Positions 1,012 through 63,482 of a DNA stretch of 64,000 nucleotides are shown here, in pieces (position 1 is the first letter of the stretch; the number at the start of each line of letters is the position of its first letter). The position numbers and the translations under genes were made by a program. The notes under the pieces were generated by a model, which had not been told where the DNA came from, did not search any database, and saw only the letters and a list, made by a program, of their open reading frames with translations. Origin of the DNA: a virus; IMG/VR virus record IMGVR_UViG_3300036770_005462, positions 8,103-72,102 of that record; one strand, written 5' to 3'.

Positions 1012-1455
1012 ATGGCTCTCAAGAAAGCTAGCCGGACCGCCCAGCGCGTTCTGTCGGCCGAGTTCGACTTCAACTTCAACGACACCATGGTTCCGGCCGC
1101 TGGTGGCGCTGCGGTTGACTTCGGCGCGACCAACATCGCGTCGACGGTCTTCGAAGTTATCAACCTTCCGATCAACGCCGTGGTTGTTGGCGGGGCAATC
1201 ACCCGCTCGACGGCCTTCGACGCCGCGACGTACACGGTGTCGGTCGGCGATTCGGGTTCGGCCACTCGCTATCTGGGTGCGACCGATGTCAAGGGCGCAG
1301 GCACGACCGCGCTGGTTCCGACCGGCTACGTCAACGCCGGTGGCCTGAACGTCCAGATCACCGTCGTCGCCGCTGACGTGTGCACCACCGGTGCCGCCAA
1401 ACTGCGTGTCGACTACGTCATTGCCGGACGTGCCGACGAGGTCTACCCGTCGTAG
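1012..1455 (+). CDS. Small virion protein, possibly a capsid decoration or head protein
   Basis: SD GGAGGAATCAC lies upstream of the ATG at 1012. It is followed immediately by a strong GC hairpin terminator. The product is 147 aa, rich in Ala/Gly/Thr/Val, and looks beta-rich. Confidence 0.5.
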   Translation: MALKKASRTAQRVLSAEFDFNFNDTMVPAAGGAAVDFGATNIASTVFEVINLPINAVVVGGAITRSTAFDAATYTVSVGDSGSATRYLGATDVKGAGTTALVPTGYVNAGGLNVQITVVAADVCTTGAAKLRVDYVIAGRADEVYPS

Positions 1456-5789: not shown

Positions 5790-7073
5790 ATGCCGACGTT
5801 TCTCCCCACCCCCATCCAGCTCACGCCGGTTTCCGGCGGGGTGTGGGAGACCCACGACCTGTCGGCGCACATCCCTGCTGGCGCGGCGGGGGCTCACATG
5901 GTGCTTGCGGGCGACGGCAGCTTCGACTACACGAACTGTGGGATTCGCCCCGTTGGTTCCACCAACGGCTTGCTATGGCAGCGGGCTGGGGTGAAGCACC
6001 ACTACTTCGTTGCGCTGAACGCCAACCGCGAAGTTCAGACCTACGTTAGCTCCGGCGGGCGGGCGTGGATCGTGGGGTATTTCAGTACCGACGAAGCGGT
6101 GTTCTTCACCGACGCCGTTTCAGTCGCGGCGACCGCGGTCGATACATGGGAAACGAAAAATATTAACGGTTCGACCGGCGCTGATCCAGTGTTGGCCGTC
6201 ATGGGCTACAACCGCGGCACGGGCAACACGTCCCCGACGAACCTTGGTTTCCGGTGCACCGGCGAAACGTATACGCCTATCGGAACCAGCGGCAGCGCCA
6301 CGTTCATCATTCCGTGCGACGGTTCAAAGCAGTTCGATATCTACACTGCAAACACTGCGCATACGTTCATGATCACGGGCTACATAAAGACCGGCTTCAC
6401 GGCAAACGCGCCCGTAGATGTGTCGACGAACAGCACGTATGGTACGAAGACCGCCCCCGCTCGCGGCGCGGTAGCAATACAGATAGACACGAATTACGCC
6501 GGCGGCAGCGGGGCAATTCGCCCCAGCTCGACGTACACGACGGCTGCACATGGCACGGGGTTCGGTAACGCCGGCCTGTCCGGTGGCATTGTGCAGACTA
6601 CGGCTTTGCGGAAGTTCGACACGTACTGCCAGAGCGCTACGCCGATCATGTACCGCATCGGGTACTTCACGGACACAATTACGCCGGATGCTCGGTACGG
6701 GCGTCCGACGGAAGATGTGGCGAAGGGAAGCTGGGTGCCGACGTCCGGGTCAACGCTGTCGCCTATGTTAGATGAGACATCGGCAGACGACGCGGACCTC
6801 GTATATACATATTCCGCAACTTCGGGCGAAGTGGTATTGAGTCCGATCACGGACCCGGCGACTAGCTCCGGGCATTCGTTGCGCGTGCGTGCGCGTTCGG
6901 ATCAGCTGCCTAAAAATCTGCGCGTAACGTTGCTACAGGACACCACGCAGATTGCACAGTGGACGGAAGCGCTGTCGGACTCATGGACTACGCACTTCTT
7001 CCCGCTGTCCGGCGCGCAGATTGACGCAATTACCGACTACGGCTTGCTCGTGGTGAGGATCGAGTCCCTGTAA
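5790..7073 (+). CDS. Tail fibre / receptor-binding-like protein, paralog B
   Basis: 427 aa. The start abuts the previous stop (TAA ATG). Its C-terminus (GSWVPTSGS...LSGAQIDAITDYGLLVVRIES) is paralogous to that of the previous gene. Confidence 0.55.
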   Translation: MPTFLPTPIQLTPVSGGVWETHDLSAHIPAGAAGAHMVLAGDGSFDYTNCGIRPVGSTNGLLWQRAGVKHHYFVALNANREVQTYVSSGGRAWIVGYFSTDEAVFFTDAVSVAATAVDTWETKNINGSTGADPVLAVMGYNRGTGNTSPTNLGFRCTGETYTPIGTSGSATFIIPCDGSKQFDIYTANTAHTFMITGYIKTGFTANAPVDVSTNSTYGTKTAPARGAVAIQIDTNYAGGSGAIRPSSTYTTAAHGTGFGNAGLSGGIVQTTALRKFDTYCQSATPIMYRIGYFTDTITPDARYGRPTEDVAKGSWVPTSGSTLSPMLDETSADDADLVYTYSATSGEVVLSPITDPATSSGHSLRVRARSDQLPKNLRVTLLQDTTQIAQWTEALSDSWTTHFFPLSGAQIDAITDYGLLVVRIESL

Positions 7074-10000
7074 TGGCGATCAGTTTCGTCTCCGCTGGCG
7101 CAGTAGCCTACACGAGTCAGAACGGCTCGAGCATTTCTGTTCCGTATCCGGCGAACATTGCGAATGGAGACGGCGTTGTTCTGATCTGCGGCATGAAGCC
7201 GGCGACGGCGAACGGCGGCACGTTCCCGACGTTGACCGGTTTCTCCGTAGCTGCCTCACTGTACGCCGCGGGCGGGTACGGGACTACGAAGGGGAACGAT
7301 ACCGGCAACACTAACGCCGTTGCGTACTTCCGCCCGTGCGACGGGACGGAAACCGGCAACCTCACGGTCTCCGTAAGCGACAGCAACATCGCGTGGGGCG
7401 TGATGTTGCGCTTCACGAAGACGGCCGGGACAGAGTGGAACTGGGACTGGGACGGCACGTGGGGCCAAGATACCACTGCTGGCACGGCTGTTTCGGTACT
7501 GCTTGATGCGGATGGCATTGGGGGTATCAGCTACAGGCCCGGCGACTTCTTCGTCGTCGGGATGTGTATTCCGACCGATGCTTCGACGCCGAATCAGTTC
7601 TCCGCGCACAGCATTTCGCTGACGAACGTCACGTTTAGCTCGGTGACGGAGGTCGTCGAGCCGGATTCGTCGGCCGGTCAGGACATTGGTGGCTTCGTCA
7701 CGTACGGATCGGTTACCGCCGCTACGAACAGCGAGGTTATTGGCGACCCCACTTACACCGCAACTGCGGGCGGCACGACGACGAACGTGCGCGGCCCGTT
7801 GGTGCTCGTTCGGTTTCGTGAGTACAAAGTCGTCAGTTCGGATCTGTCGGACGAGTACGGCGTCACTGGCGCGGTTAAGACGGACTACGCCGATTCGTAC
7901 GGCATTTTCCAGCCACAACGCGCGGCGGTGTCGTGGATCGAGTTCGACGTCGCGGACACGAAAGTTGTCTCTGACCTGTCGGACTCGTACATAACGGGCA
8001 CGACGGTACGGATTTACTCGGCTTCCTTTGCGACAAACTATGACGCCAACGTAACCGCCGTTACTTCGAGCCTCGCAGATCAGTACAACATATACGACGG
8101 CTCATCGAACCAGACAGTAACCAGCGACTACGCAGATTCGTATGAAATTTCCGGCGCAGTTACGTCCGACTACGCCGACTCCTACGGTGTTAGCGTTGGC
8201 GTTACTAGTGACTACGACGATTCGTATGCCATTGGTATCAGTGTCACTAGTGACTACGCTGACTCCTACGTTGTTAGCGCTAGCGTTACTAGTGACTACG
8301 ATGATTCGTACGCCGTCGGTACTAGTGTCGTTAGTGACTACGCCGACTCCTACGTCGTTCACGTAGCGGCTACGTCGGATTACGCCGATTCGTACGTTCT
8401 CAATTCGCAAATCACGAACGACCTCGCGGACGAGTATGTGGTCCGCACCGGCGTCACCAGCGACTACGCCGACACGTTCAATGTCGTCGCTTACAAGGGT
8501 CGCCCGAACGCGCCCAAGTCCGACGGCGGGTGGTTGCCGTCCACCGGCGGGCAGCTGTATGCCTGTATTGATGAAGTCACGCCGGATGACGTCGACTACA
8601 TCTACACCACCGGCGAAGTCCTCGGCAGCGTCTACATCGACGGGATGTCGGACCCCGGGTCCGACTTCGCACACGTGCTGTCGGTCCGGGCGTGGGCCGC
8701 GGTCGGCGCAACGCTGCCGGTTTACCTCGTTGTCAGTTTCTATCAGGAGAACGGCCCCGCTCTGCTGACGAGCGAGGTTGTGGAGCTGTCGGAAAACCCT
8801 GCGACGTTCCGGTTTACGGTGCCGACGTCGCAGTCGTCGCTGATTACTGACTACAACAACCCCGGCAAGAAGTTCGTAGTCGAGTTCCAAGCGGACCGCA
8901 TCGGTGCGCCGGCCTTCGAAGCGCGGATCTCGTGGATCGAGGTCGACGTTGCGGCGACTACGTTCCCCGTCGTAAACAACCTTGCCGACGAGTACGTCGT
9001 TAACGAGCGCGTCACCAGCGATCTGGCCGACGAGTACGTGGTGCGGCAGAGCGTGTCGAGCGATCTGGCGGATTCCTACTCTGTTAGCGCGCCGGTGTGG
9101 GCGGATCTCGCGGACGAGTACGTCGTTGCGACGTCGCTCAACAGCGATCTTGCGGATTCGTACATTGTTTATGCGCTGGTCAATCAGGACTTGCTGGACG
9201 AGTACCTCGTCTATGTGCGGACCAGCGCCGATTACGACGACTTGTACGTCCTCCGTCAGGGGGTCTCGCAAGACCTGAACGATGAGTTCGTGGTCATTGG
9301 GCGAGTCTCGTCAGACCTCGCTGATTCGTACAACGTCGAGCAGGCTGCTGGAAAGGTTACCAGCGACTACGACGACTCGTATGTCGTCCGCAACGTCGTT
9401 ACGTCGGATCTCGACGATTCGTACTTCATCACGACGCTGGTCACGACTGACTACGCGGATGAATATGTAGTCCGCGCGGCAGTCACGACCGACTACGCAG
9501 ATGAGTACGTAGTCAATGCGCCGGTTACGTCCGACTACGCGGATGAATATGTAGTCCGCAACGTCGTTACGTCGGACTACGCGGATGAATATGTAGTCAC
9601 GGGTCGCGTTACTAGCGACTACGACGACTCGTATGGAATCGCAGGCGTCGCGACCGGCGACTACGATGATTCGTACGTCGTTGCTGTCCGCGTTACCGGC
9701 GACCTCGCTGACGAGTACATCGTTCGCAACGGCGTTACGTCGGACTTCGCTGACGAGTACCTCGTTGCTTCGTCTGTCACCAGCGATCTGGCGGATAGCT
9801 ATGGCGTCGCCGGGCTTGTCACTTCTGATTACGACGACTCGTATGTCGTTCGCACCAGCGTCACGTCCGATCTCGACGACTCGTACGCCATCCGCAACGT
9901 CGTCACGTCGGATCTGGCTGACGAGTACCTCGTAATTGCGCGGGTCAGCAGCGACCTCGATGACTCGTACCTCGTCGAGGAAGTCGGCAAAGTCAGCAAC

Positions 10001-10702
10001 GACCTCGCTGATGAGTACGTCGTCCGCAACGTCGTTACGTCAGATCTCGACGATACGTACATTGTCCGTACAAGCGCCGCGTCGGACCTCGTCGATGAGT
10101 ACGTCGTCAATGCGCGGGTCAGCAGCGACCTGTCTGATTCATACAACGTCGAGGAAGTTGGCCGGGTCAGCAGCGACCTCGCCGACGAGTACGTCGTCCG
10201 CGAAGGCGTCGCTTCCAGTCTTGACGACTCTTACATCGTCCGGACTACAGTCACCCAAGATCTGGTGGATTCCTACCAGATCGCGGCACAGGCCAGCGGC
10301 GCGACCCTCGTTGTAAGTGGTGGCTTACTGCCGGGTAGTGCTACCGGTCAAGCCGTCGCGGCCGGTAGTGTCGTAAACTACCAACTGTCGCTGATTCCCG
10401 GCGCGGCCAGTGTTTCGGTCGTGGCTTCGGGGGCTACGTTAGTAGTCACTAACTCGCTGGTCAGCGGCACGGCGGTCGGCGCTGCACTTGCCAACGGCGC
10501 GCTGCTGGTAGTAACGAAGGCGCTGATCCCGGGCACGGCGGAGGGGTCGTATCCCTTCGAGGGGTACACCCCGGACCACGTGTATATGGTGCCGGCGGAA
10601 CGGCGCGGATACATCGTGCCCGAGGAGTATCGAACGCACGAGGCGACTGCCGAAGACCGCCTCTATGTGGTGAACGGAGAAACTCGGAATCAACAGGTGT
10701 AG
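7073..10702 (+). CDS. Large repetitive tail fibre/spike-like protein (1209 aa) built from about 40 tandem 14-aa acidic repeats in two blocks
   Basis: The start overlaps the previous stop (TAATG). Repeats of consensus x-V-T-S-D-[YL]-[AD]-D-[SE]-Y-[VI]-V-x-x occur in two arrays separated by the shared DGGWLP...SWIEVDV module. Confidence 0.7.
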   Translation: MAISFVSAGAVAYTSQNGSSISVPYPANIANGDGVVLICGMKPATANGGTFPTLTGFSVAASLYAAGGYGTTKGNDTGNTNAVAYFRPCDGTETGNLTVSVSDSNIAWGVMLRFTKTAGTEWNWDWDGTWGQDTTAGTAVSVLLDADGIGGISYRPGDFFVVGMCIPTDASTPNQFSAHSISLTNVTFSSVTEVVEPDSSAGQDIGGFVTYGSVTAATNSEVIGDPTYTATAGGTTTNVRGPLVLVRFREYKVVSSDLSDEYGVTGAVKTDYADSYGIFQPQRAAVSWIEFDVADTKVVSDLSDSYITGTTVRIYSASFATNYDANVTAVTSSLADQYNIYDGSSNQTVTSDYADSYEISGAVTSDYADSYGVSVGVTSDYDDSYAIGISVTSDYADSYVVSASVTSDYDDSYAVGTSVVSDYADSYVVHVAATSDYADSYVLNSQITNDLADEYVVRTGVTSDYADTFNVVAYKGRPNAPKSDGGWLPSTGGQLYACIDEVTPDDVDYIYTTGEVLGSVYIDGMSDPGSDFAHVLSVRAWAAVGATLPVYLVVSFYQENGPALLTSEVVELSENPATFRFTVPTSQSSLITDYNNPGKKFVVEFQADRIGAPAFEARISWIEVDVAATTFPVVNNLADEYVVNERVTSDLADEYVVRQSVSSDLADSYSVSAPVWADLADEYVVATSLNSDLADSYIVYALVNQDLLDEYLVYVRTSADYDDLYVLRQGVSQDLNDEFVVIGRVSSDLADSYNVEQAAGKVTSDYDDSYVVRNVVTSDLDDSYFITTLVTTDYADEYVVRAAVTTDYADEYVVNAPVTSDYADEYVVRNVVTSDYADEYVVTGRVTSDYDDSYGIAGVATGDYDDSYVVAVRVTGDLADEYIVRNGVTSDFADEYLVASSVTSDLADSYGVAGLVTSDYDDSYVVRTSVTSDLDDSYAIRNVVTSDLADEYLVIARVSSDLDDSYLVEEVGKVSNDLADEYVVRNVVTSDLDDTYIVRTSAASDLVDEYVVNARVSSDLSDSYNVEEVGRVSSDLADEYVVREGVASSLDDSYIVRTTVTQDLVDSYQIAAQASGATLVVSGGLLPGSATGQAVAAGSVVNYQLSLIPGAASVSVVASGATLVVTNSLVSGTAVGAALANGALLVVTKALIPGTAEGSYPFEGYTPDHVYMVPAERRGYIVPEEYRTHEATAEDRLYVVNGETRNQQV
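8140..8480 (+). repeat. Tandem 42-bp (14-codon) imperfect repeats, block 1, about 8 units
   Basis: Repeated ...GTTACTAGTGACTACGCYGAYTCSTACG... units are visible in the DNA. They encode SVTSDYADSYVV-like units. Confidence 0.8.
8960..10290 (+). repeat. Tandem 42-bp (14-codon) imperfect repeats, block 2, about 30 units
   Basis: Units such as VTSDLADEYVVRN, VTSDYADEYVV and VSSDLADSYNVEE recur continuously. The array casts a long spurious antisense ORF at 8102..9271. Confidence 0.8.
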
Positions 10703-11024: not shown

Positions 11025-11378
11025 GTGAGCTTAGAGTCACACGACCTCGACGTCGCCGGAAAACTCGGCGGTCTGGCCGCGGAACTCGCCGGCATGAAGA
11101 ACACATTGGGGAATCACATTACAGACGAAGACATTCGGGACGAGAAGATCCTGAAGCTTGTGACAGAGATCCGCGAGGCTCTGCCCAGTATGGAGACGCA
11201 CCGGCAACACCATGACGCCATCGAGCTTTGGCTGATGCGTCAAAAGAAGCGCCAAGAGATCCTTGACAAGATCTTGGCGGAATCCGGCAAGAGCGTTTTC
11301 ATCGCCCTCCTAGGTGCGCTCTGCTTTCTATTGTGGGAGGGCCTGAAAGTGGGGCTTCGTGCAAAAGGCGTCTCTTGA
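11025..11378 (+). CDS. Holin-like protein or membrane-anchored small protein (single C-terminal TM)
   Basis: 117 aa. The N-terminus is charged and helical, and the C-terminus carries a hydrophobic segment FIALLGALCFLLWEGL. It lies immediately upstream of the lysozyme gene. Confidence 0.35.
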   Translation: MSLESHDLDVAGKLGGLAAELAGMKNTLGNHITDEDIRDEKILKLVTEIREALPSMETHRQHHDAIELWLMRQKKRQEILDKILAESGKSVFIALLGALCFLLWEGLKVGLRAKGVS

Positions 11379-11525
11379 CGACCTGCAAGGGCATCGGGAC
11401 TTTTGGCTCCGAATGGCGGTGCATACCGTTGCTTTTCTGATCGGCATGTTGCTGGCATTTTGGATTTTCTAACCGTCTCATTCTCTTGTTAGAATCGGAG
11501 TGGGCGTTCACTCGCCAAGGGGTAA

Positions 11526-12629
11526 TTGTGTGCGGAGCGTGCCGTGACTAGTCGGATGCCGCGTTGGGAGCAGGCGCTAGCCCATCCCAATGTTCGGGCA
11601 TTCCTTCGCGTCATTCGCCAAGGCGAGTCGAACCAGACTGACAACGCTTACCGCATGATGTTCGGTGGTGAGCTGTTTGAGGGTAGCTTCGCCGATCACC
11701 CCCGCCGCAAGATCACCAAGCCGCTGGGCGGCAAGCCCATAACGAGTTCCGCGGCCGGGGCCTATCAGTTTTTGGAGCGGACGTGGACGTCGCTGGTGGC
11801 GCTCTACGGTTTCTCCGACTTCAGCCCCAAGAATCAGGACCTTGGCGCGGTTGCGCTGATCGAGGGCCGAAAGGCGCTCGACGACGTGCTGGCCGGGAAG
11901 TTTGATGTTGCAGTGCGCAAATGCGCTTTGGAGTGGGCAAGTCTCCCCGGCAGTCCGTACGGACAGCCGATGATGTCCATCGAAAAGGCGCGCCAGCTTT
12001 ACGTATCGTTTGGCGGGGAGTTCGCTCCCGCCGCCCCTGTTCCGAAATCGGAGGCTGCTGTGGCCCTTCCCCTTCTTGGCATTGCAGCCGCTGTGCTGCC
12101 CTCCCTGATCCAAGCCGCGCCGGATCTTCTCAAGATCTTCAACGATCCGGACAACCCGGACAAGACCAGCCGCGAGCGCGACGCCGAGTTGGCCGTCAAG
12201 GTGTTGGAGATCGCCAAGGAAGCTACGGGCGCGACCACCGTTGAAGAGGTCATTCCCGCGGTGCAGTCGCCGGAAGGCCAAGAGGCGTTCCGCGAGGCCG
12301 TCAAGAGTGAGTGGTTCCAGCTGCAGCAAGCGACTGAAAAGTCCGTCGACACCGCCCGCAAGTACGCGGTTGAGTACGCCCAGATCAAGAACGTACGGAC
12401 ACTGTTCGGCAAGTGGTTCCGGATCACGTTCCTTGAGTTCCTGTCGCTGGTGTTCGTGGTGATCAGCGCCGGGGGCGCTTACATGGTGCTGACCGATGAG
12501 TCCTTCGGGGAGCAGATGCGTGGCGCGGTGATTACGCTGATCCTGATCGGCGGCTTTACCGGCGTGCAGAACTTCTGGCTTGGTAGCTCGCTGGGCTCCA
12601 AGATGAAAGAGGACAAGAAGCAGGAGTGA
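11526..12629 (+). CDS. Lambda-R-like lytic transglycosylase (GH104-type lysozyme) with a C-terminal double-TM extension; the start is ambiguous among TTG 11526, GTG 11544 and ATG 11556
   Basis: The N-terminal domain aligns by eye with phage lambda R: GGELFxxxxDHPR...AAGAYQFLxRTW...DFSPKNQD...WASLPGSPYGQ. The C-terminal 100 aa contains two hydrophobic helices (FLEFLSLVFVVISAGGAYMVL and AVITLILIGGFTGVQNFWLG). Confidence 0.75.
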   Translation: MCAERAVTSRMPRWEQALAHPNVRAFLRVIRQGESNQTDNAYRMMFGGELFEGSFADHPRRKITKPLGGKPITSSAAGAYQFLERTWTSLVALYGFSDFSPKNQDLGAVALIEGRKALDDVLAGKFDVAVRKCALEWASLPGSPYGQPMMSIEKARQLYVSFGGEFAPAAPVPKSEAAVALPLLGIAAAVLPSLIQAAPDLLKIFNDPDNPDKTSRERDAELAVKVLEIAKEATGATTVEEVIPAVQSPEGQEAFREAVKSEWFQLQQATEKSVDTARKYAVEYAQIKNVRTLFGKWFRITFLEFLSLVFVVISAGGAYMVLTDESFGEQMRGAVITLILIGGFTGVQNFWLGSSLGSKMKEDKKQE

Positions 12630-12771: not shown

Positions 12772-13182
12772 GTGTGTTCGAAGGAATTCGAACATCGCCG
12801 ATCAGTAGTATGTTGCTCTCACTCTTGCGCTGCGACGCTCCAACACCGGGTTTTGGGCCCCCCGGGCTGGAAAGGCGGGCTGACTAGAGTCAATGGCTAC
12901 CTACGGCAGTATGCGCCGGATCACCCCCACGCAGTCAACAGCTACGTGGCCCAGCACCGGCTCATCATGGAGAAGCACATCGGTCGGTTCCTGCACCCCC
13001 GCGAGCGTGTACACCACAAGAACGGCCAGCGGGATGACAACCGGATCGAGAATCTGGAACTGTGGACGCTGGGCCGAAAGGACCCCCATGGCGTCCGAGT
13101 GGAAGACCTGTTGCGGGAAATGATCCACCAGCACCCCGAATTGGCCGAGCAGATCATCAAAGAACGCGACCCCGACGCCTGA
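12772..13182 (+). CDS. HNH homing endonuclease (HNH_3-like), free-standing
   Basis: Motifs GYLRQY...HRLIMEKHIG...VHHKNGQRDDNRIENLELWT match the HNH/AP2-associated endonuclease core. It is inserted between the lysozyme and a structural gene, with about 140 bp of structured non-coding sequence upstream. Confidence 0.7.
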   Translation: MCSKEFEHRRSVVCCSHSCAATLQHRVLGPPGWKGGLTRVNGYLRQYAPDHPHAVNSYVAQHRLIMEKHIGRFLHPRERVHHKNGQRDDNRIENLELWTLGRKDPHGVRVEDLLREMIHQHPELAEQIIKERDPDA

Positions 13183-18728: not shown

Positions 18729-20612
18729 ATGCCGTTGCCCCCGCAAGAATTCTTCATCGACAAGGTCTACGACGGCGTCGTAGACGAGCTTGAGCGCCTC
18801 AATACCGACACCGACGAGTACAAGGCCCTCTTCGAGTCCGTGCTGGGGTCACTGGCCGCAGCGCCTTTGCCGGTGCTGCCGCCGATCAGCTCGTTTTCGG
18901 ACCCGGCGGCGCTACCGGCGTCGGCGCTGCTGAACGTCACCAAGCCGACTGGCCCGGCAATCGATCTGGTCGGCATGAACATGCCGGCCGATCCCGCCAC
19001 GCTGGATCTGGCGGCGGATATCGCGGCGCTGATCACCTCGGTGCCGGAATTCAATCCGAGCGTTCTCGGGCTGAATCTCCCCAACGCGCCTGCCCCCATC
19101 GACACCAGCGGCCTGCCGCTGCGCCCCGACGTCGACGGCGCTATTACCCTGCCGGTGGCTCCCGATCTGAGCCTGCCGAGCATGGGTGCGCTCACCCCCA
19201 TCGTCATTCCGGAGTTCGTGTTCCCGACGCTGCCGACGTTCACCGAGACCATGCCGGTGCTGACGGCGCAAGCGCCGGACACGAATGTGGCGTGGGCCGA
19301 GCCTGCCTACGACAGCGAGCAGTTCAACGAGATCTGGCTGCGCGTCAAGGAAATGATGGCGGGCTCGCGTGGCTTGCCCCCGGCCGTCGAAGCCGCCCTG
19401 TTCGAACGCACCCGCGGGCGCGATGCGACCGCTGCATCGACGGCTGTAAAGGAAGCGTACGAGGCGTTTGCTGGCCGCGGCTACTCCATGCCGCCCGGCA
19501 TGCTGGTGAAACAGGTCAACGCGGTCATCGAGGACAGCCAGCTAAAGGCCAACGCGACCAACCGCGAGATCTACATCAAGAGCCACGAACTGCTGATATC
19601 TCAGCTGAACGTCGCTATCGAGCGCGGGCTGGCGCTGGAACAGATCAATTTCCAAGCCTTCACCAACGTGATGACCCGCTTGCTGGACATTACGAAATTC
19701 CGTGTGGAGTCCGCGATCTCTGTGTTCAACGCCGAAGTACAGGCGTTCAACATCCGCACGCAGGCGTACAACGTAGCGGCACAGGTGTTCAAGATCCTGA
19801 TCGACGCCGCACTTACGAAGCTCGAAGAGTTCCGGGCGCGCATCGAGGCGCAGAAAGCCATCGGCCAGCTGAACCAGCAAGTCGTGGACATCTACACCGC
19901 GCAGCTGGGCGCTGTCGAGACCAAGGTCAAAGCCTACGTCGCGACCATGGAAGGCGCGAAAGTGCAGACCGAGATCGTCAAGGCACAGATCGACGCTTAC
20001 CGGGGAGACATCCAAGCCTATGCCGCTCGCCTCGACGCCGACAAGACCCGCTTCGAAGCGTACGAAACACAGGTCAAGGGAGAGTCGGCCAAGGCCGGAA
20101 TCCTCGAAGCTGAAGCCCGGGCCTACGCTTCCCGCGTACAAGCCCTCGACGTAGCCGGCACGCTGTCGATGAAGAAGATCGACGCGAAGATCGAGAAGGC
20201 CAAGCTCGATACGCAGCAGTTCGCGGTGAAGGTCACGGCCGAGCGAGACCGCATAACCGCCCAAGCGGAGCAGTTCCGCGCGCTGGTGTCGAAGTACGCA
20301 GCTGATGTGCAGTCGTATGGCACCGAGCTGCAGAACAACGTCGCCACCCGCGAGCTGGACGTCAAGCGGCTTGAGGCGAGCCTGCGCAACGCCATTGCGC
20401 GGTACGAAGTAGAACTGAAGAAGTACGACGGCGAGACCAGCCGGATCATCGAGCTGGCACGGCTGAATCTGGAAAGCCTGCGGACGATGGCGCAGTACGC
20501 GGCGCAGCTTGCCGCGGGCGCGATGAGCGCGCGGAATATCAGTATGGGTGTATCTGGGCAGGGTCAGGGCTCTGACTCTCTCAACTACAACTACAACTAC
20601 AACTACGCGTAG
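18729..20612 (+). CDS. Coiled-coil internal virion / ejection-like protein (627 aa) ending in NYNYNYNYA
   Basis: The C-terminal 400 aa is heptad-like and Ala/Gln/Glu/Lys rich. The 3' end contains (AACTAC)x4. Confidence 0.5.
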   Translation: MPLPPQEFFIDKVYDGVVDELERLNTDTDEYKALFESVLGSLAAAPLPVLPPISSFSDPAALPASALLNVTKPTGPAIDLVGMNMPADPATLDLAADIAALITSVPEFNPSVLGLNLPNAPAPIDTSGLPLRPDVDGAITLPVAPDLSLPSMGALTPIVIPEFVFPTLPTFTETMPVLTAQAPDTNVAWAEPAYDSEQFNEIWLRVKEMMAGSRGLPPAVEAALFERTRGRDATAASTAVKEAYEAFAGRGYSMPPGMLVKQVNAVIEDSQLKANATNREIYIKSHELLISQLNVAIERGLALEQINFQAFTNVMTRLLDITKFRVESAISVFNAEVQAFNIRTQAYNVAAQVFKILIDAALTKLEEFRARIEAQKAIGQLNQQVVDIYTAQLGAVETKVKAYVATMEGAKVQTEIVKAQIDAYRGDIQAYAARLDADKTRFEAYETQVKGESAKAGILEAEARAYASRVQALDVAGTLSMKKIDAKIEKAKLDTQQFAVKVTAERDRITAQAEQFRALVSKYAADVQSYGTELQNNVATRELDVKRLEASLRNAIARYEVELKKYDGETSRIIELARLNLESLRTMAQYAAQLAAGAMSARNISMGVSGQGQGSDSLNYNYNYNYA

Positions 20613-20620
20613 GTGGGTGG

Positions 20621-23311
20621 ATGAAGAAGGTCAAATCGAACGTCACGCAGGACTTCAACACCAAGCGCGGTCTGCGTATGTACGCGGATGGCGGGCTCGT
20701 CGGCACCGCTGCCACGGGTCTGCGCAACCGGCATAACCAGATCGACGCTGCGGTGAACGGCGCGCCTACGGCGCAGCCCGCGGTGGCGACGAAGCCTGTA
20801 GCGCCCGCTCCTGCGCCGGCCCCCGCAAAGCCCATCGAGAAGCCCGCTCGCGTGTTCGGCGTCCCTATCGGTGGCCCGGTCGGCAGCGCCCTGCGCAAGC
20901 TGGGCATGAAGGACGGCGGCGAGGTGAAGGGCCCCGGCGGTCCGCGGGACGACAAAGTGCCGGCGAAGGGCCCGCAAGGCGAGCGCGTGCAGCTGTCGAA
21001 CGGCGAATATGTGCTGCCGTGGGAGACCGTCGACGCGCTTGGCGGCGCGGAAGAGCTGGACGAGCTGGTACGTGAGACCACGGGCCGCGAGCCCGGCCCG
21101 AAAGTCATTGGCGGCGTGCCGCACGCTGCGGCTGGCTGGGGTCTGAAGAAGGCGCTTGGCAACACCGACGTGGTGGAAGCGACTGCCGCTGATTTCGAAG
21201 CGGCGGGCGGCACCAAGCCCGCCAAGCCGGCGACACCGGTGCAGTCCGCTGCGCCGTCGAACCTCGGTTCCCGGTACGAGGCGTGGCGCAACAAGGCCAC
21301 TAGCGCTCTGCGCCGTGGCATCGACGTCGCTGGGCCGAAGGTGAGAGAAGTCGTCGGCGACCTGCGTGGTGCTGCTTCCGTTGGCGCAGAGGACGGCGCA
21401 GCTGCTGGAAGAGCCGCCGCGGCAAACGTCGGCGGGCGTGTGGGTCCGGCCCTCGGCGCAGTACAGGGTGCGGTGGAGAAAATCCCCGGCGTCGCCCCGT
21501 CGGTGAAGGGCGTGACCGTGGCCGACGCCACGCTGAATGACTTCGCCAAGGCACGTGCTGCCAGCGACCCGGCGTATCAGGACGTTACACAGCGCGCCGC
21601 GGCGAATCGCGCGCGGATGCCGGGCTCGATTGCGTCTTCGACGCAGACTGTGGCCCCCGGTGGTGGTGGCGGAACCCCGCCGTCGCCCCCGGGCGGAGGT
21701 GGCGGAGGTGGTGGCAAGCCCCCGGTAGGCGGCGCGCCGAAGTGGTATCAGCCGTCGGGCTTCGGTGCCAAGGCGTCGACCAAGCTCGTCGGTGCGGCCG
21801 GCAAACTCGGCGCTCCGCTCGCTATTGGCTCCGCAATTCCTGCCACCGCCGACATGGACGTGGACGCGCAAGCGCGGAACATGGGTGTTACGCTCGACCG
21901 CGACAACAGCGCGTGGGACATGGCCAAGGAGTTCTACGTCCGCGGCGCTGGCGCGCTGCGCAACATCGCCAGCAACGCCTCGTTCGGTCTGGTCGATCAA
22001 GCGCCGCGGCTGAACCCGCCCGAAGGCGCGCAACCCGCCGGTCCCGCTCTTGCCGCGGCTGGTCCTGCCGGTGCGAATCCTGACGTGCGTCGGGCGCTGA
22101 TTGATATGGGCGTGGACGATCCGTCGCGTCCGCCGGTGCCGCAGAACATGCGCGGTGACATATTGCGCAGCGCACGTCCTGATCCGGGTGCGTACATCAA
22201 CTTCGGCAACTATGGCGGCAACGCCGACGTGTACGGCACGGCGTCGCGCCCGGGCGGTCGGGTCAACAACTTCGCGGCCTCGGGTGGCCCGGGCAACGGC
22301 CCCGGCTACGACATGCAGCGCAACCTCGAATCCATGGCGCGCGCCAACGCGATTCGACAATCGATGATCGACTCCCAGCCGCAAGGCTCGCCGAGCGAGT
22401 TTCGCGACACGTCCGCAGCAGCCGAGACCGACGCCTTCGGCAAGACTGCAGCGCAGCGGCAGGAAGAGTCGGACGACTACAACTTGCGTCTGGCGATGAC
22501 GCGCGCCGGCAGCGGGCCGATCCCCGCCGGTTTGCGCGCGCAGCAAACGGCCATGTTGAACAACAAGTCCGAAGAAAAGCGCAACGCGCTGGACAACCAG
22601 ACGCGTACCCGCGGGCAGGATTTGTCCTACGACCTCGGCCTGCGCGGCGACCGCACGCAGCAGCGCGGCCAGAACATGACGTACGACCTCGGCATGCGCC
22701 GTGACGACACCGAACGATACGGTGTGGATTCCGTTGCGGGCAGCAACCGCGCGCGCCTGCGGCTCGATGCGGCCAAAGCCAACATGGAAACGGGCGACCG
22801 CCGTGCCACGGTTATGCGCGATGAGCTGAAGGACTTCGTGGGCCTTAACGTCAAAGACGGCAACACGGCCGAGAACCAAGAGCGGTTCAACCGGATCTAC
22901 CGCACGGCTGCAGCAACCGTCGGCAAAAACGGCATCGACCTGTCGCAGCTCGACCCGAACATTCGTACTGAGATCTACAAGCTTGCGGACCGCAAAGAGA
23001 AGATCGACGGCGAAAACGCAGCGCTCATCAACCAGCTGCTTGAATCCGTTGGCGTACGCGGGCGCAGCTTCCGGAGCGACAACGTGCTGGACTACGAGCC
23101 GAATCGCTTCGAGCGCGGGCGCTTCGGCGACACGTACTACTCCAACACCGGCGAGCAGTCGTATCAGCAAGTCGTCGGCGACGGTACGGACAAGGCCGGT
23201 CCGAGCTGGCAAGTGTGGACTGGGCAGACGCCTTCGCTGGAAGGGGCCCGCCGCGCTGACCGGCTTCAACAAGAAGAGCGTGAACGGATTCTTCGTAACG
23301 GGGGTCGTTAA
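20621..23311 (+). CDS. Gly/Pro/Ala-rich internal virion protein (896 aa)
   Basis: Low-complexity tracts such as GGGGGTPPSPPGGGGGGGGKPPVGG are present. Its TAA stop overlaps the next ATG (TAATG). The antisense 889-aa ORF at 20603..23272 is Arg-rich shadow. Confidence 0.55.
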   Translation: MKKVKSNVTQDFNTKRGLRMYADGGLVGTAATGLRNRHNQIDAAVNGAPTAQPAVATKPVAPAPAPAPAKPIEKPARVFGVPIGGPVGSALRKLGMKDGGEVKGPGGPRDDKVPAKGPQGERVQLSNGEYVLPWETVDALGGAEELDELVRETTGREPGPKVIGGVPHAAAGWGLKKALGNTDVVEATAADFEAAGGTKPAKPATPVQSAAPSNLGSRYEAWRNKATSALRRGIDVAGPKVREVVGDLRGAASVGAEDGAAAGRAAAANVGGRVGPALGAVQGAVEKIPGVAPSVKGVTVADATLNDFAKARAASDPAYQDVTQRAAANRARMPGSIASSTQTVAPGGGGGTPPSPPGGGGGGGGKPPVGGAPKWYQPSGFGAKASTKLVGAAGKLGAPLAIGSAIPATADMDVDAQARNMGVTLDRDNSAWDMAKEFYVRGAGALRNIASNASFGLVDQAPRLNPPEGAQPAGPALAAAGPAGANPDVRRALIDMGVDDPSRPPVPQNMRGDILRSARPDPGAYINFGNYGGNADVYGTASRPGGRVNNFAASGGPGNGPGYDMQRNLESMARANAIRQSMIDSQPQGSPSEFRDTSAAAETDAFGKTAAQRQEESDDYNLRLAMTRAGSGPIPAGLRAQQTAMLNNKSEEKRNALDNQTRTRGQDLSYDLGLRGDRTQQRGQNMTYDLGMRRDDTERYGVDSVAGSNRARLRLDAAKANMETGDRRATVMRDELKDFVGLNVKDGNTAENQERFNRIYRTAAATVGKNGIDLSQLDPNIRTEIYKLADRKEKIDGENAALINQLLESVGVRGRSFRSDNVLDYEPNRFERGRFGDTYYSNTGEQSYQQVVGDGTDKAGPSWQVWTGQTPSLEGARRADRLQQEERERILRNGGR

Positions 23312-26300
23312 TGGCGGGGCTTCGGCTTTACTCTCTTCCGCCTGAAGAGGAGCGCCCGCTTACCCCGTACGAACAGGCGGTACGCGGTGTCGATTCCTCG
23401 GGCGGTGAGTTCGGCCGGGGCGTAACTTCTGGCTTGCTTGGCGCTTTCGGTGGCGGCTACAACGCTACTGCGGGTGCCTTTCAGGAAGCGATGGGCGGCG
23501 ACCCCACGCGTTCCTACGACACGTCGCGAGGGCTGCTGCGCCGCGCCGGACAGGCCGCGCCCATCGTCAACAACTGGGACAAGGTCAATGGTGTTGGCGA
23601 CTTTCTCGATTACGCTGCGGGCGCTGCCGGACAAGGACTGGCATCGACGGCTCCGGGCGTAGCGGCGACGCTGCTGACTCGCAGTCCGCGGGTTGGCCTC
23701 GCCACGATGTTTCCGATGGAAATGGGCGAGTCAGTTGCAGCGACTCGCTTTGACCCCAGCATCCAGCAGCCCGACACTGCGACCATGCTGAGTGGCGCGG
23801 CCACTAAAGGCGCAGTGAATACCGCCATCGAGGCGGTGCCGTTCATGAACATCTTTGGTCGCGGTCCGCTGCGCCCGTTGATGAAAGCGGCAACGATGCC
23901 CGCTCGCGCTGGTGGACACATGCTGGCGGAAGGCGGCACCGAGCTGGCGCAACAGCGGGTCGGACAGCTTGCGCAGGACTACATGGTTCCGGGGCGCGAC
24001 ACCAGCGAAGACAACATGGAGTTGCGCGAGGCGTTTCTGCAAGGCACGCTGGGCGCAACCCCGTTCGCTGGCATGTCCCTCGCCGGCCACGCAGCGCGCG
24101 ATGCGGGCGTTGGAATGTCGAGTGCAATCGACAAGCTGTTTCCAGCAAAGGGCGAACCGACGGCGCTGGACGACCTCATCGAGTCGACGAAGAGCGTCGG
24201 TACGAAGCTGAAAGAGAAGTTCGACCCGGTCCTCGGCAAGGACACGGCCGAGACGATGGAGAACCTGCGCAAGCCGGTCGACGTCGACGCGCTGAACGAA
24301 GGCAAGCAGTTCAACCTGATGCGCCCCGGCGTGGACACGGCTGAAGACGACATCAAGAAGAAGCACAGCTTCCTGCGGCAGCAGCTGGGCAACAAGCACA
24401 CGTGGCTGGCCGAGCCGCTGGCGAAGGCGATGGACCGCTACCTACGTGGCGACACGCCGGGCGGCGACGACGCCAAGTTCAAGCAGGCGATCCTTGAAGC
24501 GTTCGACGGCAACGTCGAGCGGGCCAACGGCGTCATGGAACACTTCGCCAAGGCCGTCGAAGACTTCAGCGGCACGCTGGGCGAGCGCACCACGATCTAC
24601 GACACGGCGCGTGAGCCGTCGTGGGGCGACCGCGAGGCAGACGACGACACCGCGGCTGCGCCGGAAGGTCCGGCTATCGAGGAAGGCGGGCAGGAGTACA
24701 CGCCCAAGGCCAACTACCGCTTCGCCGGCACGGGCCGTCTGCGCCCGTACGAGAACCGCGCACAGGCTGGTGCGGCCCGCCGCGCGCTGGGAGCGGCTGA
24801 GGGCTCGAAGGTCAAAGTGCGCACGATGCTCGACTGGGCCCAAGAGCGTGGCAAGGACCCGGACAAGGCCCTGACCGACATGATCGGCGGACTGCGCTAC
24901 GACCTGAACGACATCCAGAAGCGGCTTCAGGATCGCGACATGCCGAAGGAGCAGCGCGAAGACTTGTTGCAACGCAGTAACGAGATCGTGTCGCTGCTGC
25001 GCAAGGCGATCCCGACAACTGACCCCGACACGGGCGAGATCACGGACTCCGCGACCGAGCGGCTGTCGAAGCTGTTCGTGCTGCGCGGCGAGGCTCTGCC
25101 GGCCGACGACCTGACTGCCACGTCGGAAGAGATCGCTGCCTACGCTGACAAGCGCGAGGCGTTTGGCGGGGCCAAGGGCGCGATGGTCAAGTTCCGCGCG
25201 CCGAACGGCAAGGTGCAGAACTTCAACGCGCGGCAGATCCTCGACCTCGGTCTGAAGTCGTGGAGCAAGCGCAACCCGGATCAGAAGTTCGTCGATGGCC
25301 CGGCGCACTGGCGGCGCGTGTATGAAGACGGCATCGCACGGCTGACGAACGCCGGGTACGTCCCGGATCAGTCGGAGCGCAACGGCGCGTTCCGTCCGTC
25401 GCTTGTCGTGCGCGACGGCGAGACCTACGGCGGGCTGGTTGAGAAGACGGCGCAAAGCGGCCAGACATTCGACGCGCTGCGCGACGAACAGTTTGGCGCA
25501 GACGCTGCGGCGGACCAGCGTGCCATCCTGAGCGAGCCGATGCAGGCGTCGCCGCAGGAGATTGCGGCACGTAAAGCGGAGGGCTGGGTTCCGCCGACGG
25601 TGGCTCCGGAAGAACAGAGTTCTGGCCGCGGCGACCGCATGGTCGAGACGAATCTGCTGAACCGCGAGAGCCAGCAGGGACCGGAAGGCAACGTCGGCGA
25701 GGGCTTCGACCCGACGCTGAACACGCTGCGCGATCAGGACCCGGACGGCCCGCGGCTGTTTGACGAGAACATCGTCAACAGCGCGAATCCCGACTTCGCC
25801 CCCGAGCGCCTCGAAGACACGCTGGCCAAGCCATACATGGTTCCGGACAAGCGGGCCAAGGGCGGCGCACGCAAGGCCAAGGGCGAGGAAGTCCGTGTCT
25901 CAGGCGCTCCGCTGGCGCAGCCGCAGGCTGCGACCGGTAGCAACTTGGAGAAGCTGCAGGGGCTGAAGGACCACATCGAGGCGTACCGCGCCAACCTAGA
26001 ACAGCGCGGCATCGACCCGACGAAGGCCCCGACGATGCGCCTGTTGCTCAAGCGCATGGCCGAGCTGGAAGCCGAGCGCACGAAGCTGACGAAGGAAGAC
26101 GTCGCCGCGGAGGAATCCGTAGCCGACACCGCCGCGCGCGAGGAAGCTAACCGTGCGCTCAAGCGGGAAGAGGCTGCGGCCGAGAAAACGCGCATGGCGG
26201 AAGTCACCAAGACACAGGTGATCGAGCCAGCGGAAAAACCCAAGGCTGCTCCAAAGAAATCCAAGAAGAAAGCCAAGGGCTACCGCTACGAGATCAAAGA

Positions 26301-29300
26301 CGACATGACCGAAGACGAGGTCGGCGAGACGCGCCGCCTCGAATTGATCAACGACCTGAAGAAGGCCGGCGGGGTCAACCTGCAGGACGTCATGGACGTT
26401 ATTGGCGAGCGCAAAGCCCGCGGCGTGAAGGTCATGCCGGGGCTGTTCACCAAGACCGGCATGCGCGTCGACATGCTCGCCGAGTGGATGGCCGAGAACG
26501 GCTACATCGCCGACGAGAGCGAGACCGACAAGGCGTGGGACATCGTCCGCGCCGCCACGGACAAGCAGGGCGTCTTCAAGATCGAGGATCAGGACGACCT
26601 CGGCCGTCGCCGCTTCGAAGAGCGGGCGAACAAGGAATACAGCCGGATGGATCTGTCCGGCGGGGCCGGCCAGAAGCTTACGGCCGACGAACGGCAGGCA
26701 CTGATCAAGGAGATCGTGCGGCTGCGCGGCACGCAGCTGCAGATCGCGTTCAAGGAGTTCGCCCAGATGGGTCCGGCCAAGCTGGACGCCAAGGGCAACC
26801 CGATCCTTGACGCCAACGGCGACCCGGTGCGGCAGGGTGCGTCTGGCGAGTGGTCGAAGGACAAGACCGCTGCCCACGCGCAGAAGATCATCACGCTGGC
26901 TGTCGACATTGGCTTTTCCAACGCGATGTCGGTTGCGCACCACGAGGCGGTGCACGACTTCTTCGCGGCGCTGCGCAGTGCGGATTCCTCGCCGGAAATG
27001 CGCAACATCGCCATGACTATCGAGCGTGTTGCGGAATTACCACACATCCGGAAACAGCTCGAAACGCTGCTGAAAAAGCACCCGGAAGCGCTGGAACAGC
27101 TCAAAAACCCTGAAGAGCGCGCAGCCTACCTGTTCCAGTTCTGGAAGGCGGGCCTCATCAAGGATCTGGCTCCATCGGCGCGCAATTGGTTCGAACGTCT
27201 GCTGAAGTTCCTCCGCGACGTGCTGGGCATCGTGTCGCTGGAAGAGAAGGGCGAGAAGCTGATGCTGGCGCTGGACGCCGGCAAGTTCACTGACGCCAGC
27301 ACCGTCGGTCGCGTGGTGGCCCAGATGAAGCTGGAAACCGCCGGCGACAAGCTGCAGCGCGTGGCTCCTGCGCTGTGGCATGTCGGAAACGTCGTCATGG
27401 CGAGCGTCACCGACCGCATGCGGCTGACTGAGGTGCCGGCCATCATGGCAATCGCCGACCGCCTGCACCGGGATGTCAGTCGGCAGACTGGCATGCGGGA
27501 CGACCGCCGCCCGGGGGCTACGAAAGCTGACCGGCGTAACGACCCCACCGAGCAGACCGACTTCCTTGACGCCAAGCAGCGCGCTAGCGGTATCTGGTAC
27601 TCGCAGCTGCTGAACCTGTTTCAGGGGGCCGACAAGTTCCAGATCGCCGACGCGCTGGAAGCGCTGCAGTCGCAGGAAGACAGCACGGACCCGATGGTGG
27701 TCAAGATCCGCGCCTTCCTGAAGCGCTTTCACGAGTACCTGTCGAAGGCTGACGTGATGGTCATGGACGACAGCCCGTACGAGAAGATCGACTCGAAGGG
27801 CAAGACCGTGTGGGTCTCGGGCGACGCAGCGCGGCGCTGGGTCCCGATTGCCGAGCGGCAAGTCGGGAACTACTTCCCGCGTTCGTGGGACCGCGAGAAG
27901 ATCATGGCCCACAAGGACGCGTTCGTGGACCTGATCGTGCAGAAGGGCCGCGAGGGCAACAAGACCGTGACGCGCGAGCGGGCACTGGAAATCTTCGACA
28001 CGATGACCAGCGCCGAGCAGGACGAGATCGCGGACGGCGCGGCGTTCACGCCGTACCTGATGAGCGCCAACACCCGGGCGCTGCGCTTCATTACCAAGGA
28101 CAACGCCAAGGACTTCGCCAAGTTCCAGAAGAAGGACATGGTGGCGATCCTGTCCACGTACACCTATCAGGCCGTGCACCGGGCGGAGTTCACCCGCTAC
28201 TTCGGCCATGACGGGCAGTGGATCAGGGAGAAGCTGGCGGAGGCCGAAGCTCAGGGTGCTACGCCCGAGCAGATGGCGACCGCGCGCAAGGGCGTCGAAG
28301 CCATGCTGGGCTCGCTGGGCCGCGACATGACTGAAGGCACCCGCAAGCTGATGACCTCGCTGATGGCGTACGAGAACATCGTGCTGCTGCCGCTGGCGCT
28401 GGTGAACAACTTCATGGACGTGCTGCAGATCGGGCTGCGTACCGGCGACCTGACCGAGTCATTCAACGCCATGAAGCAGGGGGTCATCGGCTTGAAGCGG
28501 CAGATCATGCGGGAGGGCCCGGACGAAGCCGAGCAGTTCTCGCGCTTGCTGGGCATGATCGACGAGAACGTCGAGCTGGCCAGCTACGGCATGCTGTACG
28601 ACGGTCACTTCATGGGCGGCATGGCGAAGAAGGTCAGCGACAAGTTCTTCCGCTGGAACGGCATGGCGACGTGGAACACGCGCATGCGCGTGGCGGCGAC
28701 GCAGGCCGGGGTGCGCTTCATCGAGCGGCACGCCGACAAGGCGCTGAAGGGTGACGAGCAGTCGATCCGCTGGCTGAAAGAGCTGGGGCTGGAAAAGAGC
28801 GACGTGCGGCGCGACAGCAACGGCAAGCCGATGTTCAAGCGCGAAGACTGGGCGCAGAAGCTGAACAAGCCGGTCGACAGCAAGGAAGTCATCGCCGCCG
28901 CTGACCGCATGCAGAAGGCGCTGTTCCTGTTCGTCGACAGTGCCGTGATCCGGCCCTCCGCGGCGCACCGGCCGATCTGGGGCTCCGATCCGCACTGGAT
29001 GCTGGTGTTCCACCTGAAACAGTTCACGTACAGCTTCCAGCAGGTGGTGCTGAAGTACACCCGCAAGGAACTGCAGCACGGCAACAGCTTCCCGGCCATC
29101 GCACTGATGATGTACGTGCCGTTCGCGATGGTGACCGACCTTACCCGGTCGGCCATCGTCGGACGCCCAATCGACTTCTCGCTAAGTGGGTTAATGGGTA
29201 GCGCAGTACGCAATTCGGCCGTGCTGGGTACTGGCACCTTCGGCATCGACGCGTGGAACGACCTTGGCAAGAATCAGGTGCCGGGCGCGTCGTTCCTCGG

Positions 29301-63342: not shown

Positions 63343-63482
63343 TGCAGGATGTAGGCGATAACGCTCGCGGCCACGTCAAGGACGAGTGGCCAGCCAAGCG
63401 CATACAGGATGGTGCTGCGGGGCAGCTTCCAGAAGAGGAAGCAGAAGCCCAAGAAGATGATGACGCCTGATTCAATGATCAT
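63183..63482 (-). CDS. Small membrane protein (99 aa)
   Basis: Hydrophobic throughout. Confidence 0.35.
   Translation of the reverse strand: MIIESGVIIFLGFCFLFWKLPRSTILYALGWPLVLDVAASVIAYILHWGTFSGIMAAAVAGFMVSAMTSAARWSVGYIDKGKYYPGHIADWRQALVRIK

Follow-up and report, generated by a model that had tools for sequence, protein, structure and literature searches.

A probable membrane-tethered GH104 endolysin of a podophage with a C-terminal module found alongside four endolysin folds

The window analyzed here is a stretch of 64,000 nucleotides of viral DNA (positions 8,103 to 72,102 of IMG/VR record IMGVR_UViG_3300036770_005462), in which the gene at 11526-12629 encodes a lambda R-type lytic transglycosylase of glycoside hydrolase family 104 (GH104) fused to a C-terminal domain (CTD). 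Judged from its sequence, this gene is probably the lysis enzyme of the phage, a membrane-tethered endolysin with a holin-like partner domain. The CTD is modular and travels with endolysin domains of four unrelated folds (GH104, GH24, GH19, and GH108), and this linkage provides a Rosetta stone type of functional link to host lysis. A conserved translation start at the domain boundary points to a second product, the free CTD. A preliminary description of the gene, made from the letters alone, had proposed either a membrane-tethered lysis protein or a virion-associated ejection transglycosylase. The first proposal is supported, in that the CTD was found fused to or directly after several endolysin folds in lysis-cassette positions and no other muralytic gene was found; for the second, no positive evidence was obtained.

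Enzyme domain and C-terminal module

The N-terminal domain had been assigned to the lambda R type, and the searches bore this out. The first ~160 residues matched lambda lysozyme (PDB 1am7 and 3d3d) with an E value of 3.4e-19 by phmmer against PDB, the N-terminal domain matched phrog_90, annotated "endolysin" (9.4e-39), and the enzyme shared 41% identity with lambda R over 116 amino acids (aa) by BLASTP. A full-length AlphaFold2 (AF2) model was built on 38 homologues and had a mean predicted local distance difference test (pLDDT) value of 84, with block means mostly >90 over residues 1-160. This predicted structure superposed on 3d3d by Foldseek with a TM-score of 0.86 and a root mean square deviation of 1.9 Å over 152 columns. 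The TTG at 11526 is merely the earliest possible start codon of the frame following a stop; translation probably begins at GTG 11544, with GGAG 6 nt upstream, or at ATG 11556, which is used by an identical database protein (P0001; 100% identity, 357 aa).

The motifs quoted in the preliminary description, namely, the catalytic Glu region GESNQTD, AAGAYQF, and EWASLPGSPYGQ, were all found in the enzyme domain, and the Glu, E24 of P0001, was unchanged across the 38 homologues. Aligned by eye, the family motif GE(G/S)(T/N), with GEGT as its consensus, matches lambda SEGT, which makes E24 the counterpart of lambda R Glu19. The BLAST alignment begins just past the catalytic Glu because the next loop is six residues shorter, and the equivalence therefore rests on this by-eye reading. 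The domain is an ordinary GH104 member with predicted transglycosylase activity. Neither Pfam nor NCBIfam returned anything for the full protein or for either half, and Pfam misses this GH104 domain. By hydropathy, no hydrophobic segment was found ahead of residue ~170-172, and the N-terminus, MPRWEQALAHPNVRAF, is polar; the protein is therefore not a signal-arrest-release (SAR) endolysin.

Two transmembrane (TM) helices had been described in the last ~100 aa. The two hydrophobic helices stand (residues 297-324 and 333-354), but the module to which they belong measures ~190 aa rather than ~100 and includes a third segment (177-199) and a helical region. It comprises, in order, a weakly hydrophobic helix (H1), an acidic helical region of ~76 residues, and a two-helix membrane hairpin (Table 1), for which AF2 placed the helices at 302-323 and 329-351. 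In an AF2 model of the CTD only, H1 was modeled as a helix with pLDDT of about 91-93, and the core of the helical region had block means of 87-97, dropping toward its C-terminal end. An invariant AR and motifs such as ERN.KAAE mark the helical region. In a set of 366 proteins with the CTD, the Kyte-Doolittle maxima, taken over 19 residues, averaged 1.6 for H1, 2.3 for TM helix 2 (TM2), and 1.77 for TM helix 3 (TM3); in the window protein, H1 reached 2.25 and contained three prolines.

Over the same 366 CTDs, the TM2-TM3 loop of ~10 residues was net acidic, the tail net basic, and the middle region net acidic. By the positive-inside rule, the acidic loop and basic tail therefore place the hairpin N-in/C-in, with both ends cytoplasmic. 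The helical region is predicted to be cytoplasmic, as is the enzyme unless H1 spans the membrane. The module had few recognizable relatives: the CTD-only model gave nothing significant in PDB by Foldseek and sub-threshold matches only in BFVD, no NCBIfam family was found, the 20 members scanned against Pfam gave no family and just scattered sub-threshold matches, and the only match was to phrog_1544, annotated "unknown function."

With three prolines and borderline hydropathy, H1 is a marginal TM segment at best and may either resemble a SAR segment or rest on the surface of the membrane. In a SAR-like scheme, H1 would serve as a reverse signal anchor, and the enzyme would be exported early, held inactive, and freed by a pinholin, perhaps the 117-aa protein encoded upstream. 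The helix is Ala-rich and weakly hydrophobic, as SAR domains are, and the gene of a small one-TM protein adjoins the fusion gene; moreover, SAR-like anchoring is the model proposed for LysAP of phage AP1, whose lysis needed its C-terminal transmembrane domain (TMD) and was reported to be Sec-dependent (PMC8879335). The scheme is nevertheless rather unlikely here. The prolines and the family mean hydropathy of 1.6 speak against an anchor, and there is no established export route for a folded 170-aa N-terminal domain without a signal, a point made by the Enc34 authors (PMC8943055). Lysis by M4Lys was Sec-independent (PMC7143992). Finally, in the split variants described below, the enzyme is a separate soluble protein without an anchor, and the function of the CTD therefore cannot be anchoring alone.

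Distribution of the module and its internal start

A search with the full-length protein returned 2468 homologues at an E value of ≤1e-5. All 120 of those listed were GH104-CTD fusions, and 119 covered at least 90% of the query, at 39-87% identity; some came from Acidovorax, Malikia, and Solimonas assemblies and carried the NCBI label "glycoside hydrolase family 104 protein." A HMMER search run exhaustively over 1.84 billion cluster representatives yielded 2109 CTD matches at E values of ≤1e-3 (727 at 1e-10 and 296 at 1e-30), each match being the representative of a 50%-identity cluster, and the CTD was C-terminal in 150/150 listed matches. The CTD profile search brought in other enzymes. Among 115 newly listed matches, 22 were fused to GH104, 13 to GH24 (PF00959), and 5 to GH19 ("chitinase" type), while 75 were stand-alone proteins of ~175 aa. 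Several of the latter (loci L017, L041, and L042) were fusions cut by contig ends and called from an internal Met, and 75 therefore overestimates the stand-alone CTDs.

In 13 distinct split loci, a separate CTD gene comes after an endolysin gene, of the GH104 type in 8 loci and of the GH19 type in 5. The arrangement was constant: the endolysin open reading frame (ORF) always ended 34-37 nt past the CTD ATG, overlapping the CTD start in the +1 frame (L009, 4384-5037 and 5001-5534; L040; L048-L064). In the GH19 split loci L009 and L040, the endolysin ends in a cationic amphipathic tail, e.g., MPRWLRSFLQLFRR. An uncalled GH24 gene lies 5' of the CTD in L007 and L008. The fourth fold was reached through Vibrio phage VHML, whose ORF20 is a remote homologue of the CTD helical region (Foldseek probability 1.00, E = 0.016; hhalign probability 94%, E = 9e-8) and sits between the GH108 endolysin and terminase genes. 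As annotated, ORF20 (L127, 6638-7154) has no TM hairpin; a TM-like stretch is, however, encoded by an ORF that overlaps it in a different frame (6984-7154), and the VHML record probably carries a frameshift that truncates a full CTD homologue. A tblastn search of the CTD against 50,697 phage records gave a sole match, a hypothetical protein of Vibrio phage 11895-B1 in an uninformative context.

The positions of these genes were consistent with lysis cassettes. CTD-bearing genes are the last late genes ahead of the integrase in L002 and L004; in L009, a siphophage-like contig, the CTD directly follows the GH19 endolysin downstream of tail-fiber genes; and in L029 and L031, the CTD gene lies just 5' of genes assigned by eye as terminase-like. 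Two holin-like traits were also observed. Split or free CTDs are ~175-190 aa long, larger than typical holins, with two or three hydrophobic helices and a basic tail, and they hold to the neighborhood of endolysins, being fused to or overlapping GH104, GH19, and GH24 and following GH108 in VHML. The CTD behaves genetically as the endolysin's obligatory membrane partner. Where the genes are split, the enzyme is soluble and the CTD must act on it in trans; a role in forming a hole or lesion fits this better than that of a mere anchor.

The linker's reading frame is all that separates split from fused versions, as would be expected if a sequencing frameshift had merged an endolysin gene with a downstream membrane-protein gene. 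Such an artifact is extremely unlikely. The identical protein was found on two independent contigs, the fusion recurs in a relative with 87% identity, unrelated samples supplied 43 distinct and complete fused junctions, and most of the 150 listed cluster representatives were of fused length.

In the family alignment, the Pro/Ala linker was hypervariable except for a conserved K-E-x-x-M/V just ahead of the CTD. The DNA encoding this motif reads AAGGAG or GGAG followed 5-9 nt on by ATG or GTG, the codon that is the first of the split CTD genes. Junctions were drawn from IMG/VR, GTDB genomes, and metagenomes (the genome-contig scan gave 4 loci) and were scored for a Shine-Dalgarno (SD) motif of at least 4 nt spaced 5-9 nt from an in-frame start. 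Such a pair was present at the CTD boundary in 46/48 distinct fused junctions, with ATG in 35 and GTG in 11, compared with 67/983 (6.8%) of the other in-frame ATG, GTG, and TTG codons of the same ORFs (Fisher's exact P = 4e-46). With an SD of at least 5 nt, the counts were 39 junctions versus 16/983 background codons. The two exceptions were L007, a split locus interrupted by an N-run, and one junction with AAGGTG. Information content was low in the linker, peaked at -11 to -7, and peaked again at the start codon, in a profile that used start codons chosen for having an SD. Given the SD and start at nearly every junction, one gene therefore probably yields both the enzyme-CTD fusion and the free CTD.

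These observations suggest the following mechanism. The enzyme, which has no export signal, would be kept on the cytoplasmic side and off the wall by the CTD hairpin, seated in the inner membrane with both ends cytoplasmic. As a holin-like module, the CTD would permeabilize the membrane or mark the site of the lesion, and the upstream one-TM protein may be involved; a membrane lesion or de-energization would then allow the tethered enzyme to reach the peptidoglycan and lyse the cell. From the internal start and its ribosome-binding site, free CTD would probably be made besides the tethered endolysin, two products of one gene as in lambda S107/S105 and the internal-start endolysins of Gram-positive systems. 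In the short form, H1 would form the very N-terminus, which is uncharged, and could pass through the membrane to give a three-TM protein, N-out like lambda S105. The long form starts with the 170-aa enzyme, which would keep H1 from crossing; this would parallel the antiholin logic of textbook lambda S107. Carried this far, the CTD would represent a large undescribed holin-like family and the fused gene a two-product device, making a free hole-former and a tethered enzyme with an antiholin-like brake. This fuller proposal is a tentative one.

Genome context and the search for other lysis genes

The window comprises the late and early regions of a podophage whose structural genes are syntenic with those of Pseudomonas phages F116 and H66. 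Genes at 1932, 2609, 13221, 14405, 15020, 17631, and 18729 match H66 gp48, gp50, and gp54-gp58, and GP4-like fiber proteins are encoded (Pfam Gp77 and Gp80). The block between the gp50-like and gp54-like genes had no detected homology to the corresponding H66 block; it contains genes for 442-aa, 427-aa, and 1209-aa proteins, a Gp77-like adaptor, the 117-aa TM protein, the GH104-CTD fusion, and an HNH endonuclease. In H66, the holin, GH24 endolysin, and Rz-like spanin genes lie directly 3' of giant gp60. In the window, only an acetyltransferase-like ORF was found 3' of the homologous 2039-aa gene before the strand switch. PHROG and Pfam scans detected no other muralytic domain in the remaining ORFs of the window, and no lysozyme family is on record for the remaining ~9 kb of the closed genome, where the genes are those for terminase, portal, and capsid plus small ORFs.

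This context bears on the proposal of a virion-associated protein, in which a packaged ejection transglycosylase would cut the wall locally and its C-terminal helices would join the DNA conduit, like T7 gp16. The gene does lie between tail-fiber and tail/connector genes, GH104-like domains are known in tail hubs (PDB 8kea; phrog_17230), and large Gly-rich neighbors occur in L027, L028, and L002, with a gene read by eye as SLT-like in the first two. The proposal is very unlikely all the same. The block is not homologous to its F116/H66 counterpart, the site of the lysis cassette in those phages holds no lysis genes here, and apart from the fusion gene no muralytic gene was detected in the phage. 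Elsewhere, the CTD comes after ordinary endolysins, both in VHML and, with GH19, in the siphophage-like contig, and it also lies ahead of terminase-like genes. A conserved internal start for a free CTD would have no obvious use in an ejection protein.

Several points weigh against a membrane-tethered endolysin with a holin-like partner domain. Its functional claims, for every member of the CTD family, are deduced from sequence. No match of the CTD to described holin families was found by Pfam, phrog_1544, or PDB fold, and its Foldseek comparison with a phage "3TM GTA holin" was not significant (E = 0.25, probability 0.41). In L027 and L028, the fused gene lies amid the genes of large Gly-rich, internal-virion-like proteins and beside the SLT-like gene. 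Since Pfam misses GH104, the Pfam scans for a further muralytic gene may have overlooked other families as well. No spanin was found, a lipobox scan of the window giving no credible outer-membrane spanin, and the lysis system is therefore incompletely explained. The 48 junctions are related sequences rather than phylogenetically independent ones, and SD conservation could come partly from lineages switching between split and fused forms rather than from use of the start in fused genes. In the window itself, the family Met column is CTT and the candidate GTG lies four codons upstream; from the background rates, the chance of such an SD and GTG site arising was estimated at ~0.01-0.05.

Most related cassettes also encode a small one-TM protein, which could be the real holin and leave the CTD as a tether or regulator. 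In this respect, the CTD might be an antiholin or timing regulator of the one-TM protein, or a stand-in for the missing spanin or outer membrane disruption step, with fusion serving co-expression and co-localization. The presence of a small bitopic membrane protein in nearly every cassette, the lack of a detected spanin in the window, and the large conserved soluble helical region of the CTD, absent from ordinary holins, would agree with such an accessory role. On the other side, the CTD is conserved across cassettes and the small membrane proteins, which had no detectable mutual homology, are not; the predicted cytoplasmic helical region is ill suited to a spanin-like role; and a regulator fused to three enzyme folds is harder to explain than an export device. 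An accessory role is considered unlikely.

The gene upstream of the fusion had been called holin-like. Its product does have a single C-terminal TM segment, but no family match was found in Pfam, PHROGs, NCBIfam, or PDB, and the 117-aa protein is here a candidate small membrane partner of the cassette (holin or antiholin). The gap between the two genes contains weak hairpin/T-run sites at 11414-11455 and, read by eye only, a TGnTAGAAT extended -10-like motif at 11487-11495, whereas the promoter scan itself gave no site; the gap might represent a late promoter of its own or the scar of an insertion. The HNH gene, inserted between the fusion gene and the gp54-like structural gene, probably belongs to the variable block as a mobile passenger outside the lysis function, and its presence suggests that the block is a hotspot for mobile insertions.

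Two further candidates were rejected. The 104-aa "holin" gene lies in the early region with no endolysin nearby, directly 5' of genes for a MoxR-type ATPase and a phrog_1314 "HNH endonuclease" (42466-43572 and 40501-41649, both on the minus strand), and was not accepted as a second lysis cassette; the phrog_1314-matching protein resembles, by eye, a VWA or metallopeptidase-like protein. A weak "Rz-like spanin" match at 1012..1455 was discarded, as this position is held by a virion structural protein in H66. In the 2039-aa protein, an HExxH motif (HHEAVHDF) and a weak match to phrog_7348, annotated "endolysin" (1.3e-6), were noted at residues ~1513-1625. Its C-terminal 500 aa had no PDB relative. 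The protein may carry an entry-associated hydrolase.

The 1209-aa tail-fiber-like protein (7073-10702, plus strand) consists largely of dozens of 14-residue repeats, e.g., VTSDYADSYVV / SDLADEYVV, which appear in the DNA as 42- and 84-nt tandem arrays, and it had no Pfam or PHROG match. The 627-aa protein of the structural module (18729-20612, plus strand; phrog_10969, homologue of H66 gp58) had a sub-threshold match to Csa1, a Cas4-like exonuclease (PF06023, 2.5e-5). A further contig, L038, joins the end of the window to its start; there, genes for 99-aa and 113-aa membrane proteins (63183-63917) adjoin the terminase-portal-capsid genes. The latter precede the first gene of the window, and therefore the window spans most of a phage genome. 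Among the contigs with the identical protein, the longest measures 72,102 bp.

Table 1. Coordinates of the fusion gene, its parts, and other features of the window
Feature	Position	Strand	Remarks
117-aa protein gene	11025..11378	+	N-terminal coiled-coil-like soluble part, one C-terminal TM segment (residues ~83-111; ORF and hydropathy)
Intergenic gap, 147 nt	11379..11525	.	Unusual for such a tightly packed operon
GH104 enzyme-CTD fusion gene, maximal ORF	11526..12629	+	367 codons counted from TTG
GH104 lambda R-type lytic transglycosylase catalytic domain	11556..12035	+	PDB, PHROG, and Foldseek matches; without N-terminal signal or SAR segment
Catalytic Glu codon	11625..11627	+	E34 in TTG numbering, E24 of P0001
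End of Pro/Ala interdomain linker	12036..12059	+	SD-like GGAGG at 12050-12054
H1, Ala/Pro-rich weakly hydrophobic helix (residues 177-199)	12054..12122	+	AAVALPLLGIAAAVLPSLIQAAP; hydropathy and AF2
Putative in-frame internal cistron, free CTD of 189 aa	12060..12629	+	GTG 12060, 5 nt past GGAGG
Net-acidic helical region, 5 helices	12138..12401	+	Predicted cytoplasmic; most conserved soluble part of CTD
TM helix 2 (residues ~297-324)	12414..12497	+	Small-residue SAGGA stretch; Kyte-Doolittle, AF2
TM helix 3 (residues ~333-354)	12522..12587	+	IGGFTG, invariant W-L-G-S/T-S end motif; Kyte-Doolittle, AF2
K-rich tail	12588-12626	+	After TM helix 3
HNH endonuclease gene	12772..13182	+	PF13392 3.5e-10; phrog_20891 8.8e-25; directly 3' of fusion gene
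Giant 2039-aa virion protein	23311-29430	+	Related to H66 gp60 PLxRFG family
GNAT acetyltransferase-like ORF	29434-29859	+	Weak phrog_1249 match; occupies F116/H66 holin-endolysin-spanin site
104-aa three-TM protein	43569-43883	-	phrog_7045 "holin" 1.6e-14

Comparison with known lysis systems

The catalytic domain shares its fold, motifs, and catalytic Glu with lambda R (PDB 1am7 and 3d3d). Lambda R itself, in contrast, is a 158-aa soluble protein with no membrane module, freed by the separate S holin. For the putative second product, the closest parallels are the dual-start holins, lambda S107/S105 and S21 71/68, in which one gene gives two in-frame products with a common C-terminal part and, in lambda S107, the N-terminal extension of the longer form blocks the first helix from crossing the membrane. 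The enzyme domain could block H1 in the same manner, but the extension, only a few residues long in those holins, would here be an entire enzyme of 170 aa, and use of the internal start is predicted. Internal-start endolysins such as Lys170, CTP1L, CD27L, and Ms6 LysA also make two products; their common part is a wall-binding domain, whereas here it would be the membrane module. The layout of the CTD further resembles that of PF11351, "Holin of 3TMs, for gene-transfer release," which has a hydrophobic N-terminal segment, a charged helix, and two TM helices and lies beside an endolysin. This likeness is a lead only, and no Pfam match to PF11351 was found among the 20 CTDs scanned.

Natural translational fusions of a membrane lysis or export protein with an endolysin have been described in Clostridium sporogenes, where TpeE-family holin-endolysin fusions occur in six genome sequences (PMC9527704). 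The order is reversed in that case, with the holin N-terminal and the enzyme C-terminal (PMC9527704).

The preliminary description had called a C-terminal double TM unusual. This is fair, but the arrangement has precedents. Enc34 ORF39, M4Lys, and the endolysins of chi-like phages (Chivirus, Siskin) have an N-terminal enzyme and a C-terminal two-helix TMD, and in proteins of the Enc34/M4Lys type the full-length form is toxic or lytic and the TMD-deleted form harmless (PMC8943055, PMC7143992). Endolysins with a C-terminal TMD need it for lysis, and the full-length proteins can lyse without a separate holin (PMC7143992, PMC8943055, PMC8879335). The fusion protein has the same architecture by hydropathy and AF2. 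Its enzyme, however, is GH104 rather than of the PHA02564 fold, and its module has ~190 aa with a conserved helical region compared with ~70 aa in the Enc34/M4Lys type. The CTD profile was not homologous to the membrane domain of Enc34 ORF39 (hhalign probability 0.13), and membership of the CTD in that TMD family was therefore rejected; it is an analogue. Modular swapping, split genes, and an internal start are not mentioned in the sections of the Enc34 and M4Lys papers at hand. In LysAP of Acidovorax oryzae phage AP1, a single C-terminal TMD is required for lysis and membrane localization, and the gene adjoins that of a one-TM holin (PMC8879335). LysAP is likewise an endolysin with a C-terminal TMD, and its host genus also holds named homologues of the window protein, but by its description it is set apart as a 227-aa GH24 enzyme with a single TM helix and without the ~190-aa CTD architecture.

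No description of the CTD family, its swapping among enzyme folds, or its internal start was found in the searchable literature, the coverage of which is incomplete. For Enc34, M4Lys, and LysAP, the question has been raised of how an enzyme whose sole membrane domain is C-terminal gets to the wall. The CTD family offers a larger and more informative test set, with thousands of members, three enzyme folds in fusions, and natural split and fused versions that differ by one reading-frame change. Should the CTD prove to be a holin, the holins would gain a new family of large size, and engineered lysis might profit from a compact cassette consisting of one gene; the blanket label "glycoside hydrolase family 104 protein" given to such prophage genes would also be corrected. 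In its design, the fusion joins the known endolysins with a C-terminal membrane domain, Enc34, M4Lys, Siskin, and LysAP, as a new variant.

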